A DNA stretch of 64,000 nt from contig JAFCFZ010000001.1 of assembly GCA_017608385.1 (NCBI GenBank), positions 8,734-72,733 of the forward strand, written 5' to 3'. The stretch is from Candidatus Parvarchaeota archaeon (GTDB lineage: Archaea > Nanobdellota > Nanobdellia > B33-G15). Made by a program: the position numbers and the translations under genes. How positions within the stretch are numbered: the first letter of the stretch is position 1; every line of letters starts with the position of its first letter. This document shows, piece by piece, positions 1,893-27,025 of this stretch. The notes under the pieces are model-generated. The model saw only the letters and a program-made list of their open reading frames with translations. It was not told the origin of the DNA and ran no database searches.

Positions 1893-3335
1893 ATGAGGTT
1901 TTTATCACTCCCTGTGATTTTACTTTTGATAATTGGGATTGCTTTTTCAAGTCCTGCTCTTTTTGGATTCACAATATTATCAGATAAACAGTCCTATGTT
2001 CCAAATGATACAGTGAATTTGCAAAATATTGTTCTTTATGGTGTTGATAATCCTGCTTATGGAGCTAATGTCACAATACATCTTTATGATCCTAACAGAC
2101 TTTCTTTTCTGAATTCCTCTTGTTCTACTGATGAAAATGGAATTTGTAATGTGAATTTTACACTAGGTAATGAATTGGGCTATTGGATTGTAAATGGAAT
2201 TACCGAATTATCTGGAAATAGCATAATGAGTGTTATTCTTCTTGATATTCATGAGGAAATTTGTGGGGATGGGTATTGTGATATTAATGAACCTGGAAAT
2301 TGTGAATTAGACTGTGGAAAAATGAATGGGGGTGTTTGTTCATTAGATCAAGAATGTTATTCTGAATCTTGTTGTCATGGAATATGTAGAGATGATTGTC
2401 CTCATTGTGGGGATGGGTATTGTGATTCAGGGGAAATTTGTGTTTCTGATTGTGGAGAAGACATAGATACTGTAATTGAAGAAATGACTTCTTCTGGTTG
2501 GGGTTTCTTTGTAAGTGTTGGAATGAAAATTCATTCTGAGACATATTTTCAAACCTCTCAAAATTCAATATTAGAATTCGAAGTAGTTGTTGAAAATTTA
2601 GTTAACTCAACTAAAGAAGGAGTTTATCTCAGATTCGAAGGTGTCTCAGATCCTAATTTCTTTCCTGAAATAACTGATATAAATCCCTTAACAAATCAAT
2701 CCTTTGTTGTTTCCATTCCAATCTTATCTGGAGAAGATTTAGGAAATAAAACAATTGAAATGATTGCTGTTTCAAATAGATCTGTAAGTAATAGAGTGGA
2801 TATCACAATAAATGTGATTGAGACAGAATTTGATTCTCTTTTTAATTGCGTATTACAAGAATGTGAAATTCTTTGTTGTGAAAATTATGTTTGTTGTGAA
2901 GGTGTTTGTAGAACCTCTTGTCCTTATTGTGGAGATGGAATTTGTTCAATTGGAGAAAATTGTTTGTGTTCTGATTGTAATTCTTGTGAAAACAGTGAAA
3001 TTACAGGAAACAAAGAAGAAGCAGAGTCCAAAATCACTCAAGCAGAACTAGCAATTCAAAATGCTTTTGTTTATGTTTTTCAATTAATGATACAAGAATC
3101 TAAAGATTTCCTAGAAATTGCTAAGAATAATTTTGTGATATTTGATTATTCTCAATCAATTGTAATGGCTAACAATTCTCTAGAAACAACAAACAAAACC
3201 CAAATTTATGAATTCCTAAGTTATGGGAGTGTTGTACTCCTTTTCAGCTTGTTTTTCATCAACAAGTTTTATAAATCTCGAAATCAATCAAGAAAATATG
3301 GCAAAAGTATCAGTAAAAGGAAATCTAGGCGTTAA
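1893..3335 (+). CDS. Secreted cysteine-rich repeat surface protein with a C-terminal TM anchor
   Basis: An N-terminal signal or TM helix (LPVILLLIIGIAF) is followed by three CGDG[YI]C...DCG cysteine-rich modules (EEICGDGYCDINEPGNCELDCG, CPHCGDGYCDSGEICVSDCG, CPYCGDGICSIGENCLCSDC). The C-terminus has a hydrophobic helix and a basic tail (VVLLFSLFFINKFYKSRNQSRKYGKSISKRKSRR). There are many N-x-S/T sites. Confidence 0.55.
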   Translation: MRFLSLPVILLLIIGIAFSSPALFGFTILSDKQSYVPNDTVNLQNIVLYGVDNPAYGANVTIHLYDPNRLSFLNSSCSTDENGICNVNFTLGNELGYWIVNGITELSGNSIMSVILLDIHEEICGDGYCDINEPGNCELDCGKMNGGVCSLDQECYSESCCHGICRDDCPHCGDGYCDSGEICVSDCGEDIDTVIEEMTSSGWGFFVSVGMKIHSETYFQTSQNSILEFEVVVENLVNSTKEGVYLRFEGVSDPNFFPEITDINPLTNQSFVVSIPILSGEDLGNKTIEMIAVSNRSVSNRVDITINVIETEFDSLFNCVLQECEILCCENYVCCEGVCRTSCPYCGDGICSIGENCLCSDCNSCENSEITGNKEEAESKITQAELAIQNAFVYVFQLMIQESKDFLEIAKNNFVIFDYSQSIVMANNSLETTNKTQIYEFLSYGSVVLLFSLFFINKFYKSRNQSRKYGKSISKRKSRR

Positions 3336-3984
3336 AAAGCCATTAGTTCTTGTCGGATTTTATAGTCCTGGTTTAATTGGAACCTTAGTTTCACAATATC
3401 TTGCTAAAAGAACCAAAGCAAACCAAATAGGTCATTTAGAAACAGAACTTCCTCCTGTTGCTATGATATCTAAAGGTAAGGTAGAACATCCTATAAGAAT
3501 TTACAGTGTGAAAAAAAAGAATATGATCATTATCTCATCAGAATTACCTATCCCTCCAAACAATGCAGATGCTATAGCAAAAAGTATTGTAGAATGGGTC
3601 AAAAAAATAAATGGAGAAATAATTTGTATTGAAGGAATGATGGCAAAAAAAGCAGATAAATTATTTATGGTAACTTCTAAAAAGAATCTTAAAACAAATA
3701 TCCAATCTTTAGGAGAGGGAATTATAATGGGTATAACTGGTGCTCTTTTATTAAATTCTTCAGAAAAGAATGTTCCAACTACATGTATTGTTGCAGAAAC
3801 AGAATCACTAATGCCTGATGGAAAAGTTTCTGCTAAGGTAATTGAAAAAATGAATGAATTATTCAAATGGAATATTGATGTTGCTCCCTTATTAAAAGAA
3901 ACTCTATTATTTGAAAAGAAAATGAAGGAAATGCCTCAAATGAGAAAACCACAGTCTTCTGAGATGGGAAGATTATATGGTTAA
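3298..3984 (+). CDS. PAC2-family proteasome assembly chaperone (PbaA-like)
   Basis: Taking the internal ATG at 3298 (MAKVSVKGN), the sequence KKPLVLVGFYSPGLIGTLVSQYL...ELPPVAMISKGKVEHPIRIY matches the conserved PAC2 N-terminal pattern. The C-terminus ends ...RLYG, which resembles the HbYX motif used for proteasome docking. Confidence 0.55.
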   Translation: MAKVSVKGNLGVKKPLVLVGFYSPGLIGTLVSQYLAKRTKANQIGHLETELPPVAMISKGKVEHPIRIYSVKKKNMIIISSELPIPPNNADAIAKSIVEWVKKINGEIICIEGMMAKKADKLFMVTSKKNLKTNIQSLGEGIIMGITGALLLNSSEKNVPTTCIVAETESLMPDGKVSAKVIEKMNELFKWNIDVAPLLKETLLFEKKMKEMPQMRKPQSSEMGRLYG

Positions 3985-4334
3985 CATATCTGTTCTATTT
4001 CTGTACCATTAACTAACATAACTTCACATGGAAAATATGCTGAACAATTATTTTTACAATAATCGAGAGTGATCAAATAATTTATGTTAAATCCTGCAAG
4101 AAAAATTTGTCTCATTTCAAAACAGTCATTTCTACATTTGTTCTCTAAATCTGAATTATATGTATTTATACATCCTGTATATTCTGAACTCATACAACAA
4201 AGATTGTAATCAAATGAGCAACAAAGCCTTTCATTTACAAATCCACAATTAAAGTAAGTTAGACTTATAAACAAGACAAGAGGAATTGAGAAGAGTAATA
4301 AAAGTATTCCAAAAAGAAATGGTTTAAGTTTCAT
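3981..4334 (-). CDS. Small secreted cysteine-rich protein
   Basis: An N-terminal signal-like helix (MKLKPFLFGILLLLFSIPLVLFISL) is followed by a 90-aa domain with about 13 Cys. I did not recognise a family. Confidence 0.35.
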   Translation of the reverse strand: MKLKPFLFGILLLLFSIPLVLFISLTYFNCGFVNERLCCSFDYNLCCMSSEYTGCINTYNSDLENKCRNDCFEMRQIFLAGFNINYLITLDYCKNNCSAYFPCEVMLVNGTEIEQIC

Positions 4335-4383
4335 AAAATTTAGAATAAGCCCATATTTAAAATGTTTTTCAATTCAGAAAGGT

Positions 4384-4391
4384 TTAAAAGA
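4384..4391 (+). promoter_or_regulatory. Putative archaeal TATA box for the 5S rRNA gene
   Basis: TTTAAAAG is centred about 24-28 nt upstream of the predicted 5S start and is preceded by a purine-rich BRE-like stretch (AAAGG). Confidence 0.4.
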
Positions 4392-4411
4392 ATAAAGGAA
4401 GGTATAATTTT

Positions 4412-4528
4412 TGCCCACGGTCATAGTTTTGGGGGAAACACCCGTTCCCATTTCGAACACGGAAGTTAAGCCCCAAAGCGTTATTGGGTGTACTGTCTAA
4501 CGACGGGAAACCAGTGAGCTGTGGGCAC
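4412..4528 (+). rRNA. rrf: 5S ribosomal RNA, stand-alone and not linked to 16S/23S
   Basis: The sequence contains the conserved 5S core ...GGTCATAG...CCCGTTCCCATTTCGAACACGGAAGTTAAGCCCC...GTACTG.... The terminal helix pairs 5' TGCCCACGG with 3' CTGTGGGCA. The region is GC-enriched relative to its flanks and is about 117 nt long. Confidence 0.85.
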
Positions 4529-4558: not shown

Positions 4559-4816
4559 ATGGCCAATCCATATGAAGAGGTTAAGAGATTGTTTGACCTA
4601 GCTAAAAAAAATCCAAACAATACTAAATATATCGAAACAGCTAGAGAGATCATGAAAAAGCAGAGAAAAGCCCTTCCAAAAGAACTCTCTGATAAATTCT
4701 GCAAAAAATGCAATATCTACTTTATTCCTGGTAAAAACTGTAAAGTTAGAATATCTAACAAATCAGTTTTCATTCATTGTGAAAAATGCAATACACTCAA
4801 AAGAATAAAAGCATAG
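4559..4816 (+). CDS. rnp4: RNase P protein component 4 (Rpp21/Rpr2 zinc-ribbon protein)
   Basis: I trimmed the ORF to the internal Met (MANPYEEVKRLFDLAKK) because the upstream part overlaps the 5S rRNA. A basic N-terminal helix and C-terminal CKKCNIYFIPGKNCKVRI...CEKCNTLKRI match the Rpp21 zinc-ribbon pattern. Confidence 0.6.
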   Translation: MANPYEEVKRLFDLAKKNPNNTKYIETAREIMKKQRKALPKELSDKFCKKCNIYFIPGKNCKVRISNKSVFIHCEKCNTLKRIKA

Positions 4817-8683: not shown

Positions 8684-9246
8684 TATTCAAACTTCACATT
8701 TACCGGTGCTCTTTCGCTTGCGGCTATTTTTATAAATTCCTTGGCCCTTCTTCCCATAATGGCTGAAAACCATCTTCCTGGAATTGTTGTCACAGAATTG
8801 TTGTAAGTCAATATTGAATCATTGTAGTATTGTCTTGAGTAAGCTATTTTGTTCTCTATTCCTTCTAATTGTTCTTGTAACAATTTGAAGTTCTCGCTTG
8901 CCTGAAGTTTTGGGTAATTTTCAGCTATAGCAAAAACAGATCTTAAAGCAGATGTTAGTTGGTTACTTGCGTCAACCCTACCCTGTAAATTTCCTGCCTT
9001 TAACATATTTTCTCTTGCTTTAGTGACATTACTGAATATCTTTTTCTCGTGTTTTGCGTATCCTTTCACTGTTTCAACCAGATTTGGTACTAAATCTGTT
9101 CTTTTCTTGAGTTGTACATCAATTTGAGACAAAGCGTTGTCGATTCTATTACCCATTATAACGATTTTGTTATAATAGTAAAGTAATCCCAGGACAAATA
9201 GGAATATTGCTCCTACAATAACTCCAAAGATTATCCATTCAATCAT
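8683..9246 (-). CDS. LemA family protein
   Basis: An N-terminal TM helix is followed by the LemA core (NALSQIDVQLKKRTDLVPNLVETVKGYAKHEK...YYNDSILTYNN). The LemA-HtpX pair is conserved. Confidence 0.7.
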   Translation of the reverse strand: MIEWIIFGVIVGAIFLFVLGLLYYYNKIVIMGNRIDNALSQIDVQLKKRTDLVPNLVETVKGYAKHEKKIFSNVTKARENMLKAGNLQGRVDASNQLTSALRSVFAIAENYPKLQASENFKLLQEQLEGIENKIAYSRQYYNDSILTYNNSVTTIPGRWFSAIMGRRAKEFIKIAASERAPVNVKFE

Positions 9247-9325
9247 AATTTAATATCCATGAAACTCAAATATAAACTTTCACATGAATCGTTAATGATA
9301 TAATAGCTGTTTTAACTTCAAAATT

Positions 9326-10150
9326 ATGGATAGAGGAGTACTAATGGAAATTAGAAGAGAGTATAGACAATATCGTGTAGAAAGAAAAGCATGGGAAGAA
9401 AGAACAGAGAAAAAAAGAGACGAACAACCTTCTCTAAATCAAATAGCAGAGAAATTAGATATAGAGGGCGTTACTGCTTCAAGAAAAGCAAAACAATACA
9501 ACTTATTTGAAGATTATTTAAAGAAATTATTAGAAATGAGGGGGGAAGAAATAATACAAGAAGGTTATCTTTTTTATCAGGCATTATCTAATGATTTTGT
9601 TAGGTTAATACATAAAAAAGTTAATGGTTCAAAAGATAAAAATTCATTTAATTTCCTTGTTTCTGAAGGTTTAGAACATCTATTAAGATCTTGGAAGAAA
9701 AAGAAGAGATTGGTGAGTGGAAAAAAACCCAAATTTTTGAAAAAGGATGGTTTAGTAGGTGTCCTTGTTGAAGATTTTATTGAGGAAGGACCTGTAGACA
9801 TAAAAGAGATGATGGATAGAAAGGATAAGGAAGACCAATTCACAGGACTTTATGACTTAGTTCTTTTGGACAAGAGTTTTTGGCAAACACCATTAGTGTT
9901 TTCTTTAACACGGCTTATTCCCCATTCTACCTTTACAAAAACAATTACACCTAAGTGTATAAGAAATGAACATCTTCAAAAATATGAAGTAAGTTTACCT
10001 TTTGGTTTTGAATACTTGATTGAATTAGGATTAGTAGAATTAACAAGTAGAACAATGAACAAAAGTAAATACGCTCTTACAGACGATGGTAAAAGATTTG
10101 CAAAAGCAATTAAACAAACTAAAAAATATCTTGGAATTTCTAGTCCTTAA
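9326..10150 (+). CDS. Hypothetical protein with HTH-like segments at both ends
   Basis: This 274-aa protein has a charged N-terminus, an HTH-like stretch (SLNQIAEKLDIEGVTASRKA) and a winged-helix-like stretch near the C-terminus (KYALTDDGKRFAKAI). I did not recognise a family. Confidence 0.35.
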   Translation: MDRGVLMEIRREYRQYRVERKAWEERTEKKRDEQPSLNQIAEKLDIEGVTASRKAKQYNLFEDYLKKLLEMRGEEIIQEGYLFYQALSNDFVRLIHKKVNGSKDKNSFNFLVSEGLEHLLRSWKKKKRLVSGKKPKFLKKDGLVGVLVEDFIEEGPVDIKEMMDRKDKEDQFTGLYDLVLLDKSFWQTPLVFSLTRLIPHSTFTKTITPKCIRNEHLQKYEVSLPFGFEYLIELGLVELTSRTMNKSKYALTDDGKRFAKAIKQTKKYLGISSP

Positions 10151-10453
10151 TGGAAACATTTAAAAGGTGTTTTCTGCTTGTTGAAAAGCAATGTTAAGAA
10201 CAATGTTTGTGCAAGAAGGAAACACCATTAGAAATATGGTAAGAGAAGGAGAAATTGTATTTGCCCCTTCATTAGGTGGTAGAATTACAAGAGAAAAAGA
10301 CAAACTCTTTCTAATTACTAGCACAAAGAAGATTGAAATTCCACGAGATTTGATCCATAAAATCAAAATCAGAAAGGAAAATAACAGAAAAATAGCTTAT
10401 TCTGAATAGATTACTTTGATAGTAACATTTAAAAACTAAAGAAAGGTCCTTTT

Positions 10454-20505: not shown

Positions 20506-20636
20506 AAAATAAGAGTGTTATCTTTTCTTATATCTTTTAGCATGATAAGAAAAATTTATAAGCAAAATTATGGATAAATACATCATGCAAGGTGATTATT
20601 TTTGCCTGGAGAGAAGTTCCACCTAAATTTAATTCT

Positions 20637-20722
20637 GGCGGGGTGACCGAACGGCCAGGTGGTCGGCTGCAAAGATTTATCACAGCTACCGACATAATTG
20701 GGTTCGACTCCCAACCCCGCCT
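20637..20722 (+). tRNA. tRNA-Cys(GCA) with a 15-nt intron in the anticodon loop
   Basis: The acceptor stem pairs GGCGGGG with CCCCGCC. The T arm is TTGGG-TTCGACT-CCCAA and the discriminator is U73, which is a Cys identity element. The anticodon stem pairs GTCGG with CCGAC, and the loop reads CTGCAA, so U33 and anticodon GCA. About 15 nt (AGATTTATCACAGCT) are inserted after position 37. There is no encoded CCA. It lies 16 bp upstream of cysS. Confidence 0.75.
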
Positions 20723-20737
20723 TTCGGAGGAATTCAT

Positions 20738-22117
20738 ATGAAAATATATCTATATAACACATTAACAAGAAAAAAAGAGAAATTTGTTCCAATAAAGAAA
20801 GGAGAAGCAGGAATATATTGTTGTGGGCCTACTGTTTATGATTATGCTCATATTGGGAATTTGAGAGCTTATTTGTTTGAAGATATACTTAGAAGAATGT
20901 TTCTTTACAATAATTACAAAATAGATCATGTCATGAACATAACTGATGTTGGACATCTTACTTCTGATGCTGATGAAGGGGAAGATAAAATGGAGAAAGG
21001 AGCGAAAAGAGAAGGAAAAGCTGCTTGGGATATTGCTGAAAAATACACAAAAGCGTTTTTCCATGACACTAATCTTTTAAATATAGTAAGGCCAGAAACA
21101 ACACCAAAAGCAACAGACCACATAAAGGAAATGATTAAGTGGATTAAGAAATTAGAAGAAAAAAGATTTACATACAAAACATCTGACGGAATTTATTATG
21201 ATACTTCTAAATATGAAAAGTATGCTGATTTTGCAAAACTTAATTTGGAAGGCCTAAAAAAAGGTGCAAGGATTGAGTTTTCTAAGGAAAAAAAGAATCC
21301 TTCTGATTTTGCTTTGTGGAAATTCTCTCCTTCTGACAAAAAAAGAGATATGGAGTGGGAATCTCCGTGGGGAAAGGGATTTCCAGGATGGCATATAGAG
21401 TGTTCTGTCATGTCTATAAAGTATTTGGGAAAACAATTTGACATTCATTGTGGTGGAATAGATCATATAAATGTTCATCATACTAATGAAATAGCTCAAA
21501 CAGAACCAGTTATTGGTAAAAAATGGGTTAATTATTGGCTTCATAATGATCATCTGGTTTTGAAAGAAGGAAAAATGAGCAAGTCTGAAGGAAATTTCAC
21601 AACCTTACAAACCTTGATCGATAAAGGGTTTGATCCTTTAGCTTTTAGATATCTTTGTTTTGGTGCAAATTATAGGACTAAAATAGAATTTTCCTGGGAA
21701 GGAATGAAAAAGGCACAACAATCTTATGATTCTCTAAGAAATAGGGTTTCTCTTGCTAAAAAGGAAAATGGAAAGGAAAACAAAAAGCTCTTTGAAAAGT
21801 TTGAAAAAGAGTTTCATGAAAGAATCAATGATAACCTTGACACTCCACAAGCAATGGCTATTGTTTGGAATATGATAAAATCAGATCTTTCTGGAAAAGA
21901 AAAAATAGAATTAGTCACAAAGTTTGATAAAATTCTTGGATTGGATTTATTGGAAGAAGAAGAACTCCCAGAAAATGCATTAGATATGATCAAAAAAAGA
22001 GAAGAAGCCAGAAAGAATAAGAATTGGAAAACAGCAGATAGAATAAGGGAAGATCTTGATGGAATGAATGTTTTTGTAGAGGATACTAAAGAAGGAACAA
22101 TATGGAGAATCAAATAG
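20738..22117 (+). CDS. cysS: Cysteinyl-tRNA synthetase
   Basis: It has a HIGH-type motif (CGPTVYDYAHIGNLR) and KMSKS (KMSKSEGN), plus the zinc-binding Cys at CGG. It is class I aaRS length. Confidence 0.9.
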   Translation: MKIYLYNTLTRKKEKFVPIKKGEAGIYCCGPTVYDYAHIGNLRAYLFEDILRRMFLYNNYKIDHVMNITDVGHLTSDADEGEDKMEKGAKREGKAAWDIAEKYTKAFFHDTNLLNIVRPETTPKATDHIKEMIKWIKKLEEKRFTYKTSDGIYYDTSKYEKYADFAKLNLEGLKKGARIEFSKEKKNPSDFALWKFSPSDKKRDMEWESPWGKGFPGWHIECSVMSIKYLGKQFDIHCGGIDHINVHHTNEIAQTEPVIGKKWVNYWLHNDHLVLKEGKMSKSEGNFTTLQTLIDKGFDPLAFRYLCFGANYRTKIEFSWEGMKKAQQSYDSLRNRVSLAKKENGKENKKLFEKFEKEFHERINDNLDTPQAMAIVWNMIKSDLSGKEKIELVTKFDKILGLDLLEEEELPENALDMIKKREEARKNKNWKTADRIREDLDGMNVFVEDTKEGTIWRIK

Positions 22118-23003
22118 GCTCTGCATCAAAACCTCTTTTTACTAATTCTTTAGCAAATTCTTTGTTGAATCCATGAGTTACATATATTTTTTCAGGATTA
22201 ACTTTTTCAGCTGTTTCAATCAAACCAGGAAAGTCTGCATGATCTGACAATGGAAAGGTTACATCATGACCTACTATATCTTTAGCCCAACCTGAAAAAA
22301 ATGCTCTTTTTGCCTTGAAATCTATTTTTGTTCGAGGAGGAGTTATAAAAACAAAGGGTTTTTTGTCAAAATTATGTTTTCTTGCTTCTCTAAAAGTCAT
22401 AAATCCATTTAAGTCAATCCCAAATCTAGAATAAACGCTGTTCATTTTAAGCATTGATCCATGAACAAAAACAGGATGTTCTAAATCTTCAAACAATTTC
22501 GCAAGGAGTTGGGATTTTCCCAAAGAATATGCATAAGCAACAACATTATTTCCCTTATTCAATTGTTTATTTATCCAATCTAATGAAGAAATCATTACTT
22601 CCTCTGGTTCTGGTAAAACATAATCTTCTCTTCCAAAAGTAGACTCCATAATCAAAATGTCTGCTTTTTTTGGAAAAAACTTATTCATGAATAGTCTTTT
22701 CCTATCTGAAAAATCTCCAGTATAAAGAATAGTCTGGTCTCCTTCATACAATAAAGCAGCTGATCCTAAGATGTGTCCTGCATCAAGAAGTTTAACATTT
22801 TTAGGTAAATCAATAACATTTTTTGGATCAAAATTGTATCTTGCTTTCATTAATTCAACTGTCTCAGGGGTTGCTATTATCTTTCCTTCCATTATCTTGT
22901 GATCTGCATGTGCATGAGAAACAAAAGTGATATCCGCTTTATGGTCCATTCCTATTTTTATTTTACCATCTACAATAGTTTCATTTTCCTTATCAAAATA
23001 CAT
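22110..23003 (-). CDS. Metallo-beta-lactamase fold hydrolase, possibly a beta-CASP-like nuclease
   Basis: HAHADH, AGHILGS and YTGD motifs, plus a late SDHADF motif, are consistent with an MBL fold and possibly a beta-CASP nuclease. It is compact at 297 aa. Confidence 0.5.
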   Translation of the reverse strand: MYFDKENETIVDGKIKIGMDHKADITFVSHAHADHKIMEGKIIATPETVELMKARYNFDPKNVIDLPKNVKLLDAGHILGSAALLYEGDQTILYTGDFSDRKRLFMNKFFPKKADILIMESTFGREDYVLPEPEEVMISSLDWINKQLNKGNNVVAYAYSLGKSQLLAKLFEDLEHPVFVHGSMLKMNSVYSRFGIDLNGFMTFREARKHNFDKKPFVFITPPRTKIDFKAKRAFFSGWAKDIVGHDVTFPLSDHADFPGLIETAEKVNPEKIYVTHGFNKEFAKELVKRGFDAEPI

Positions 23004-26139: not shown

Positions 26140-27025
26140 AATTACATTTTTAGGAACTGGAAACATGTTTCCTACTGAAAGGAGGAACCATCCATCAGTT
26201 TTGTTAAGATATAATGGGGATCTTATTTTATTTGATTGTGGAGAAGGAACACAAAAACAACTGAGAAAAGCCAAGATTCCTCCAACTAAAATCAAGTATA
26301 TTTTCATAACCCATTGGCATGGAGATCATTCTTTAGGTCTTCCAGGAATGTTTCAAAGTTTAAGCGCTCATGGAAAAAAAGAGAAATTAATTGTAGTAGG
26401 TCCTGCAAAAACAAAAGAAAGAATTGAATACATAAAAAAAGCGTTTACTTGGTATGAAAACTTTCAAATAGAAGTTATAGAAGCAAAAAATGGAAAAGTA
26501 ATCGAAACAGATGAATGGATAATAAAAGCGATGGAAGTGAAGCATGGAACTCCTTGTTTAGCTTATTCTTTTGAAGAGAAAGAGAAAGTTAAAATCAATA
26601 TTGAATACACTAAGAAATTTGGTTTGATTCAACATCCTTTACTTGGCAAATTGCAAAAAGGCCAAACAATAGAGTGGAAAGGGAAAAAGATAACTCCAAA
26701 AAAAGGTACTTTCAAAAAAAAGGGAAAAAAGATAACTTATATTACAGATACAGTATTTTTTCCTGAATTAATTGATTTTTCAATGGATTCTGATGTAATT
26801 ATTTCTGAGTGTTCCTTTATGGATAGAGATACAGAAATGGCTCTTGATAAGAAACATATGATTACTTCTCAAGTTGGGATGTTGGCTAAAAAATCTAATG
26901 CAAAAAAACTATTATTATTTCATATTAGTCCAAGATATTCAAACGAAAAAGAGGTTGTTGAAGAAGTAAAAAAAGTTTTTGAAGAGGCTAAATTAGTTAA
27001 TGATTTAGAGAAGATTAATGTTTGA
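26132..27025 (+). CDS. rnz: Ribonuclease Z (tRNA 3' processing endonuclease)
   Basis: The sequence reads ITFLGTGNMFPTERRNHPSVLL...LFDCGEGTQKQL...FITHWHGDHSLGLPGM and ends with an MBL C-terminus (LLLFHISPRY). Confidence 0.8.
   Translation: MVEITFLGTGNMFPTERRNHPSVLLRYNGDLILFDCGEGTQKQLRKAKIPPTKIKYIFITHWHGDHSLGLPGMFQSLSAHGKKEKLIVVGPAKTKERIEYIKKAFTWYENFQIEVIEAKNGKVIETDEWIIKAMEVKHGTPCLAYSFEEKEKVKINIEYTKKFGLIQHPLLGKLQKGQTIEWKGKKITPKKGTFKKKGKKITYITDTVFFPELIDFSMDSDVIISECSFMDRDTEMALDKKHMITSQVGMLAKKSNAKKLLLFHISPRYSNEKEVVEEVKKVFEEAKLVNDLEKINV

Follow-up and report, generated by a model that had tools for sequence, protein, structure and literature searches.

The question raised by this locus is whether a 64,000-nucleotide (64-kb) stretch of contig JAFCFZ010000001.1, referred to below as the window, carries a tRNA-Cys(GCA) gene interrupted by an intron directly before cysS, the gene of cysteinyl-tRNA synthetase (CysRS), and whether the two genes are expressed together. 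Both had been proposed from the letters of the sequence. Default-mode ARAGORN finds no tRNA anywhere in the window, and an Rfam scan at gathering thresholds misses the tRNA-Cys, its sole match in the window being the 5S rRNA at 4413..4527. These blank results are due to the intron and not to the absence of the gene; the original prediction, read by hand, therefore added real information. Taken as a whole, the locus is very probably a functional, intron-split tRNA-Cys(GCA) of a DPANN archaeon, which would be made in one unit with cysS.

The tRNA-Cys gene and its intron

The gene consists of three parts, of which the exons are supported by the ARAGORN intron search and by covariation of the cloverleaf, and the intron by ARAGORN and by the geometry of its bulge-helix-bulge (BHB) motif:

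20637..20672, plus strand: tRNA-Cys exon 1, tRNA positions 1-37, anticodon GCA at 20669-20671
20673..20687, plus strand: 15-nt intron AGATTTATCACAGCT at the canonical 37/38 site, relaxed hBHBh' motif
20688..20722, plus strand: tRNA-Cys exon 2, tRNA positions 38-73, U73 at 20722

With its intron search switched on, ARAGORN reports tRNA-Cys(gca) at [20637,20722] on the plus strand with the intron i(37,15), that is 20673..20687, thus reproducing the predicted isotype and anticodon as well as the position, length and sequence of the intron. When introns of up to 60 nt were allowed there was one such call in the real window and none in 40 block-shuffled windows. The 5' half of the gene reads GGCGGGG-TG-ACC-GAACGGCCA-GGT-G-GTCGG-CTGCAA and is followed by the intron, after which the 3' half reads A-CCGAC-ATAA-TTGGG-TTCGACT-CCCAA-CCCCGCC-T. 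The elements that had been named beforehand are all found in it: the acceptor stem GGCGGGG/CCCCGCC (20637-20643 with 20715-20721), the anticodon stem GTCGG/CCGAC (20662-20666 with 20689-20693), the T arm TTGGG-TTCGACT-CCCAA and the discriminator U73, a T at 20722. The loop nucleotides C-T-GCA-A occupy 20667-20672 and are separated by the intron from A38 at 20688; the 7-nt anticodon loop CUGCAAA, with U33 and a purine at 37, forms only once the 15 nt are removed.

The set used for comparison was composed of homologues from four other lineages and two intron-less genes from other DPANN genomes, with introns removed, and the covariation alignment holds six spliced or intron-less tRNA-Cys sequences, the window's and those of five relatives. 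In this alignment the cloverleaf (7-bp acceptor, D, anticodon and T stems) has standard pairs in 100% of its 120 cells, and 13 of the 20 pairs have changed on both sides, all four stems showing compensatory evolution. None of 500 shuffles reached these pairing and compensatory values, and sliding the 3' partners lowered the pairing to 33-48%. U8, U33, G34-C35-A36 and U73 are invariant in all six sequences. GCA and U73 are the universal identity elements for CysRS, U73 being the main one, and the tRNA is predicted to be charged with cysteine by this enzyme. That 20637..20722 (+) is a tRNA-Cys with a 37/38 intron can be regarded as virtually certain. It is of an already known kind, a canonical-position archaeal tRNA intron being an ordinary feature in archaea.

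An intron-containing tRNA-Cys stands upstream of cysS, on the same strand, in five diverged lineages, with introns of 15-50 nt. They are listed with their intron, the spacer between the tRNA and the cysS ATG, and the identity of their CysRS to that of the window:

Window (= L081, L082): intron 15 nt at 37/38; spacer 15 nt; CysRS the reference
L083-85 (syntenic): intron 35 nt; spacer 16 nt; CysRS 65% identical
L086: intron 50 nt; spacer 22 nt; CysRS 66% identical
L088-89: intron 33 nt; spacer 2 nt; CysRS 60% identical
L176: intron 35 nt; spacer 72 nt with T-runs and GGAGG; CysRS 42% identical

For L086, ARAGORN had proposed a 29-nt intron and, in addition, a long variable arm; comparison with the homologous genes of the other lineages led to the rejection of this model in favour of a 50-nt intron at 37/38. 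The site after position 37, which the original prediction had described as canonical for archaeal introns, is the same in all five lineages and is that of most archaeal tRNA introns (PMC5829648).

The exon-intron junctions of the window can be arranged into a BHB motif, although the fit is not perfect. The anticodon stem serves as the flanking helix h. The 5' bulge is A36-A37|A1 and the 3' bulge C14-U15|A38, where 1, 14 and 15 are intron positions. Both predicted cuts fall after the second bulge nucleotide, as they do in canonical substrates. The central helix H is formed by C32-G13, U33-A12 and G34-C11 and by the mismatch C35xA10, so that three of its four pairs are Watson-Crick, and the outer helix h' has 2 bp (G2-C9, A3-U8) closing a UUUA loop. 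The anticodon-intron pair C32-G is present in four of the five lineages, the window included. A BHB-like fit as good as this one is expected in about 0.8% of random 15-mers of the same base composition.

Several observations count against the motif and against splicing, which is a prediction. The BHB conformation has an energy of -4.4 kcal/mol, compared with -8.3 kcal/mol for the minimum-energy fold, which is in another register (G34-C14, C35-G13), and its central helix carries the C35-A mismatch. On both grounds the junction is better described as a slightly relaxed BHB. The search for the splicing endonuclease EndA (tRNA_int_endo), which the original prediction had proposed as a check, gave no match in Pfam searches of the 82 called open reading frames (ORFs) of the window and NCBIfam searches of ten, nor was an RNA ligase or a CCA-adding enzyme found in the same scans; the 64 kb are a small part of the genome, and the result is uninformative for the genome as a whole. 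Relaxed motifs are substrates of EndAs that bear particular loop inserts; an L3 insert has been reported across diverse DPANN lineages, and such inserts have been linked to more disrupted tRNA genes (PMC5829648).

The longer introns of three relatives (L083 3915-3949, L176 8807-8841 and L086 1741-1790) share the sequence GGUGUR-CUGA-3 nt-RUGAUG-YGUU, which resembles a box D'/C' K-loop; the core CUGA-3 nt-RUGAUG is the signature of an archaeal D'/C' K-loop. The pair flanking it is compensatory, being G-C in two of the introns and A-U in L086. These introns contain only the K-loop half, without terminal C and D boxes, and a role as box C/D guides is not claimed for them, the complementarity to the tRNA found by eye being only about 4 bp. 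The window's 15-nt intron has neither a C (RUGAUGA) nor a D (CUGA) box and has apparently lost the K-loop motif.

Two minus-strand ORFs, 20537..20737 and 20583..20792, overlie the covariation-supported tRNA and the start of cysS. They had been called spurious at the outset; both are indeed listed, and their dismissal is a judgement that fits their position. G+C-rich tRNA DNA is in any case apt to lack stop codons. A 78-aa "gene" called at L176 8729-8965, across the tRNA-Cys and the tRNA-cysS spacer, is probably spurious in the same way.

The tRNA-Cys is the only tRNA gene in the 64 kb. ARAGORN in intron mode also calls tRNA-Lys(ctt) at c[56005,56400], with a 299-nt intron; in view of its 24.7% G+C, the mismatches in its stems, an implausible arm and its overlap with ORFs, this call was judged to be a false positive. 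A relaxed threshold gave nine further calls with introns of 98-1776 nt. Among related DPANN contigs, ARAGORN calls intron-containing tRNAs at L177 6542-6639 (-), L178 817-914 (-), L009 6663-7217, L108 5163-5717 and L012 2372-2505; the calls include Ser(cga) with a 13-nt insert at 39, Glu(ttc) with 42 nt at 41, Leu(taa) with 32 nt at 38 and Ala(ggc) with 37 nt at 37. Some of these candidate intron positions may be non-canonical. DPANN genomes annotated with default tRNA finders and Rfam, both of which miss the present gene, will seem to be without tRNA-Cys.

The window encodes RadA, PCNA, TFS, RpoL, Nop5, fibrillarin, a thermosome subunit, aIF2-alpha, Alba, archaeal ribosomal proteins and Rpp21. 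The named relatives of its RadA belong to Nanoarchaeia, Nanoarchaeota, Woesearchaeota and Tiddalikarchaeum, the nearest RadA being 83% identical, and the best genome matches to its CysRS include Woesearchaeota, Nanoarchaeota and Pacearchaeota, the nearest CysRS being 65% identical. To judge from this archaeal gene set and from the relatives of RadA and CysRS, the host is a DPANN archaeon without a close sequenced relative.

Linkage of the tRNA to cysS

Whether the tRNA and cysS share a transcript depends on the following features:

20550..20562, plus strand: predicted archaeal promoter, an A-rich element like the B recognition element (BRE) and the TATA box TTTATAAG (20555-20562), its function suggested by the box spacing
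20723-20737, plus strand: 15-nt spacer TTCGGAGGAATTCAT, with the Shine-Dalgarno (SD)-like GGAGG at 20726-20730, 7 nt before the ATG
20738..22117, plus strand: cysS, cysteinyl-tRNA synthetase, 459 aa; Pfam tRNA-synt_1e (E = 7.8e-97) and CysS_C, homologues named cysteine--tRNA ligase

The gap between the tRNA and cysS is 15 nt (20723-20737), close to the 16 bp given originally. In the window this spacer contains no TATA-like box and no oligo-T or other T-run; the spacer of L176 differs. No TATA-like box is found within 60 nt upstream of the tRNA either, and the only good promoter lies about 80 nt upstream. Its TATA box starts exactly 30 nt before 20585, and the transcript probably starts there, about 52 nt upstream of the tRNA, and not at the tRNA itself. 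A similar spacing recurs in the window. A TATA-like hexamer starts 24-40 nt before the ATG in 17 of the 36 genes that have an upstream gap of at least 50 nt, with a sharp peak at 26-32 nt (mode 28-29), which is a leaderless arrangement, and before the 5S rRNA (4413-4527) a TATA-like box starts 30 nt upstream of the mature 5' end. Most first genes of this genome thus seem to be leaderless. A 5-mer SD is borne by only five of these 36 genes, cysS among them. A scan for sigma-70 promoters and intrinsic terminators was uninformative for an archaeon.

The placement of the promoter and the promoter-free spacer make one transcript, from about 20585 through the tRNA into cysS, the most economical arrangement. 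Together with the conserved adjacency described below they support the suggestion of a compact, possibly co-transcribed unit, and co-transcription of the tRNA-Cys with cysS, as predicted here, is favoured with fair confidence. Transcription would start at about 20585 from the BRE/TATA element at 20550-20562 and continue through the tRNA into cysS. RNase P would take off the 52-nt leader, and RNase Z would cut after U73, freeing the tRNA and leaving a cysS mRNA with a 15-nt GGAGG leader. EndA would then cut in the two 3-nt bulges (AA|A and CU|A) of the relaxed BHB and an RNA ligase would join the exons. CCA would be added last, and post-transcriptionally, because it is not encoded, U73 being followed by TTC. 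As a result, a cysteine tRNA and its charging enzyme would be made from one unit. Parts of the processing machinery are encoded in the window:

26165..27025, plus strand: ribonuclease Z, the tRNA 3' endonuclease; NCBIfam TIGR02651 RNase_Z equivalog (301.9 bits, cut-off 292.95), Pfam Lactamase_B_4
4559..4816, plus strand: RNase P subunit Rpp21/Rpr2, for removal of 5' leaders; Pfam Rpr2 (E = 3.7e-14, 53.2 bits, cut-off 29.3)

The Rpp21 ORF scores below the cut-off of the NCBIfam model for RNase P component 4.

The arrangement has been kept in the five lineages across one change of cysS clade. In L176 (cysS at 8949-10343), four neighbouring proteins are 50-83% identical to those of the window, whereas the CysRS of L176, at only 42% identity, falls in another clade. 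It is a DALR_2-bearing enzyme of the archaeal-type clade, with its best matches (57-61%) in Thermoplasmata, Micrarchaeota and Aenigmatarchaeota; the window's CysRS is closer to enzymes of Spirochaetia and Cloacimonadota (48-53%) than to that of L176. This discrepancy points to a replacement of cysS in one lineage, in which the position behind the tRNA-Cys would have been retained.

The adjacency also recurs independently. L180 carries the nearest relative of the L176-type CysRS, and in it an unrelated, intron-less tRNA-Cys stands about 10 nt before cysS. On this 1.08-Mb contig the tRNA-Cys is at 2918-2990 and a GTG-start cysS at 3001-4419; the flanking genes, a PALP (cysteine-synthase-like) gene upstream and genes for NifU and a NifS-like aminotransferase downstream, look cysteine-related. 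The recurrence of the adjacency suggests that it brings an advantage, or at the least that the two genes are readily transferred together.

CysRS-based scans of genome and metagenome contigs gave 160 cysS loci (all at most 59% identical), in none of which cysS is preceded by an intron-containing tRNA-Cys. TRNAs close to cysS are confined, in these loci, to L026, with an intron-less tRNA-Cys 470 bp upstream, L016, with an intron-less tRNA-Cys adjoining cysS on the opposite strand, and L004. In L004 (Woesearchaeota) a non-cognate tRNA-His(GTG) at 3923-3996 ends 4 nt before the start of cysS. An exact-pattern scan of metagenome contigs with exon 1 gave 0 matches, look-ups of P0005, P0006, P0009, P0013, P0127 and P0128 gave no tRNA-Cys/cysS unit, and a literature search for a described archaeal tRNA-Cys/cysS unit found nothing relevant.

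The most serious alternative is that the tRNA gene and cysS are mere neighbours, each expressed alone, so that their adjacency is neutral synteny without a shared transcript. A number of observations count in its favour and against a common transcript. The 72-nt spacer of L176 contains T5 and T7 runs that could terminate archaeal transcription, and in L086 and L088 the tRNA is preceded, at about 32 nt, by a TATA box of its own; read-through into cysS is therefore no constant trait of the family. The great majority of cysS loci, counting the 160 from two protein-based scans and the further look-ups, have no tRNA-Cys nearby. The statistics of translation signals are weak: SD-like motifs occur in 9 of 32 closely packed genes and in 5 of 36 gapped genes, an association that is not significant (Fisher p = 0.23). 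Within the intron, TTTATC (20677) is a weakly TATA-like hexamer 61 nt before the cysS ATG; as a promoter for cysS it was set aside, since it lies outside the 26-32-nt peak and is unconserved in the relatives.

On the other side, nothing promoter-like separates the tRNA from cysS in the window, the 60 nt before the ATG being G+C-rich tRNA and the 15-nt spacer. In L088 only 2 nt separate the discriminator from the ATG. The adjacency has outlasted the exchange of cysS for one of another clade (42% identity) and has arisen with an unrelated tRNA-Cys in L180. Separate expression of the two neighbours is accordingly judged the less likely arrangement, a minority reading that keeps some weight.

Two side observations concern the ends of cysS. 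In L088 3895-4003, and also in L089, the sequence …CCTCGCC-T-GT-ATG places the cysS start so close to the tRNA that a cut by RNase Z would leave an essentially leaderless cysS mRNA. At the other end, in the window, a convergent gene at 22110-23003 (-) for a metallo-beta-lactamase (MBL)/beta-CASP nuclease overlaps the cysS stop by 8 nt; in NCBIfam it comes closest to the ligase-associated exonuclease, with a score below the cut-off. The pairing of cysS with this nuclease gene is kept in L083 and L086; L176 has the corresponding gene, with no overlap with cysS.

A tRNA directly before its own synthetase gene is a simple route to the co-expression of both partners. The locus, in which the two are arranged with unusual tidiness, also offers a compact case for studying how archaea process a transcript on which RNase P, RNase Z, EndA and the ribosome would all have to act.

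The conserved leader and the less likely readings

The predicted transcript begins with a block of conserved sequence:

20585..20626, plus strand: 5' leader with a block (20585-20609, ATGCAAGGTGATTATTTTTGCCTGG) conserved in four lineages, a mini-ORF and/or hairpin
L083 3827-3856, L086 1635-1661 and L176 8722-8751: the corresponding blocks

The block, 23-25 nt long, is near-invariant in the window, L083, L086 and L176, in contrast to the intergenic DNA around it, which cannot be aligned. It occurs once in the window, is otherwise restricted to loci of these lineages and has no match in Rfam. It can be read in two ways. As a leaderless mini-ORF (ATG..TAA) it encodes MQGDYFCLERSST* in the window, with the Cys codon TGC at 20603-20605, and MKGGYFCLD*, MKGGCFCL* and MSGGYFCLC* in the relatives, the consensus being M-x-G-G-Y-F-C-L. 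The ORFs have 8-13 codons with one or two Cys codons; TGC at codon 7 is invariant in the four lineages, and L086 and L176 each have an extra TGT, as codons 5 and 9 respectively. The ATG lies 28-31 nt from the start of a TATA box in all four, L083, L086 and L176 having a box equivalent to that of the window before the same ATG. As RNA, the block can be folded into a predicted hairpin AGGUGR-UUAUUU-UUGCCU (AGGUGA in the window). The leader as a whole is predicted to form two weak hairpins (-6.5 kcal/mol for the consensus), without compensatory pairs. Codons 3-7 show two changes at second positions and none at third positions, and this pattern favours a constraint that would act at the level of the nucleotides and not of the protein.

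These features raise the possibility that the unit is regulated through its leader, either by ribosomes on the leaderless 8-13-codon ORF that would sense Cys-tRNA, or by a protein that would bind the 5' hairpin. The proposal has some attraction. The block has been kept in four lineages, its ATG being placed after the TATA start in the leaderless geometry of this genome; each ORF has TGC at codon 7, and L086 and L176 have gained their second Cys codons at different positions. L086 moreover retains the block in spite of its second TATA box beside the tRNA. The objections are heavier. There are only four sequences, the substitutions in codons 3-7 point away from a constraint on the peptide, and the same sequence also allows a hairpin. 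The leader has no identified pair of terminator and antiterminator, the terminator scan having found none there, and the L088 lineage, with its TATA box about 32 nt before the tRNA, is without the block. Leader-peptide control is not known to be established in Archaea. Regulation through the leader is therefore considered improbable.

In its most ambitious form, promoter, mini-ORF or hairpin, intron-containing tRNA-Cys and cysS would together be a self-regulating "cysteine decoding" operon of a DPANN lineage, a proposal to which we likewise give little chance. If it were true, a conserved 23-nt 5' element would sense the supply of Cys-tRNA or bind a protein such as CysRS, and so set the output of both the tRNA and the synthetase. 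Such a coupling, being selected for, would account for the position that cysS has kept behind the tRNA-Cys after the clade replacement, and Archaea would have their first case of leader-type control over a tRNA/synthetase pair. The block is the one part of the locus that could turn out to be new and, being short and well defined, it is easy to test.

The weakest reading, in which the 15 nt would be no intron and the gene either a tRNA pseudogene in decay or one for a tRNA-Sec-like tRNA, of different identity and with a long variable arm, deserves hardly any credence: standard annotation tools do skip the locus, and the best Rfam model for the unspliced sequence, and the sole rival isotype of the kind against which the original prediction had warned, is tRNA-Sec (24 bits, E = 0.009), but this score is far below the gathering score of 47, is obtained with many non-standard pairs by absorbing the intron as a variable arm, and goes with the anticodon GCA in place of UCA, whereas the cloverleaf is perfect and covarying once the insert is removed, U73 and GCA are invariant, and the insert varies between 15 and 50 nt between conserved exons and therefore behaves as an intron and not as a variable arm.

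Comparison with known systems

Like canonical archaeal introns and the substrates of EndA (PMC5829648), the insert in the window lies exactly between positions 37 and 38, is short (15 nt) and occurs in an archaeal host. Its predicted motif shares with the canonical BHB (PMC5829648) the two 3-nt bulges on opposite strands, the cuts after the second bulge nucleotide, the anticodon stem as flanking helix and the C32-G anticodon-intron pair. It differs from it in the single C-A in the 4-bp central helix and in an outer helix of just 2 bp; a further difference is that the cognate EndA is not seen within the 64 kb.

The intron of euryarchaeal tRNA-Trp, in Haloferax volcanii and relatives, reportedly encodes a box C/D guide RNA. 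The introns of L083, L086 and L176 are similar in that they carry a K-loop at 37/38, and Nop5 and fibrillarin are encoded in the window. They lack terminal boxes and convincing guide complementarity, however, and the window's intron is without the motif altogether.

In bacteria, synthetase genes can be controlled by the cognate amino acid through their leaders. T-boxes are bacterial; a T-box leader precedes the gltX-cysE-cysS operon of Bacillus, and the pheL leader peptide precedes pheST in E. coli. The present locus resembles these systems in having a short conserved leader, with a codon for the cognate amino acid, before a synthetase gene. In contrast to them, it has no T-box (the Rfam covariance model gave no match at E up to 10 in 20560-20800), contains one or two Cys codons only, has no identified terminator or antiterminator, and has its leader placed before a tRNA gene.

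A further parallel is to transcripts that combine a tRNA with an mRNA. In bacterial operons of the tRNA-tufB type, such co-transcripts are released by RNase P and RNase Z. The "tRNA punctuation" model of mitochondria describes the same kind of release (PMC5474008). As in both of these systems, the tRNA of the window abuts a coding gene with neither promoter nor terminator between them, and RNase Z and an RNase P subunit are encoded within the window. The 2-nt distance between the discriminator and the ATG in L088 recalls the leaderless mRNAs of mitochondria in particular (PMC5474008). The present unit, the co-transcription of which is predicted, differs from them in that its tRNA also needs splicing and in that the partner of the tRNA is its own cognate synthetase.

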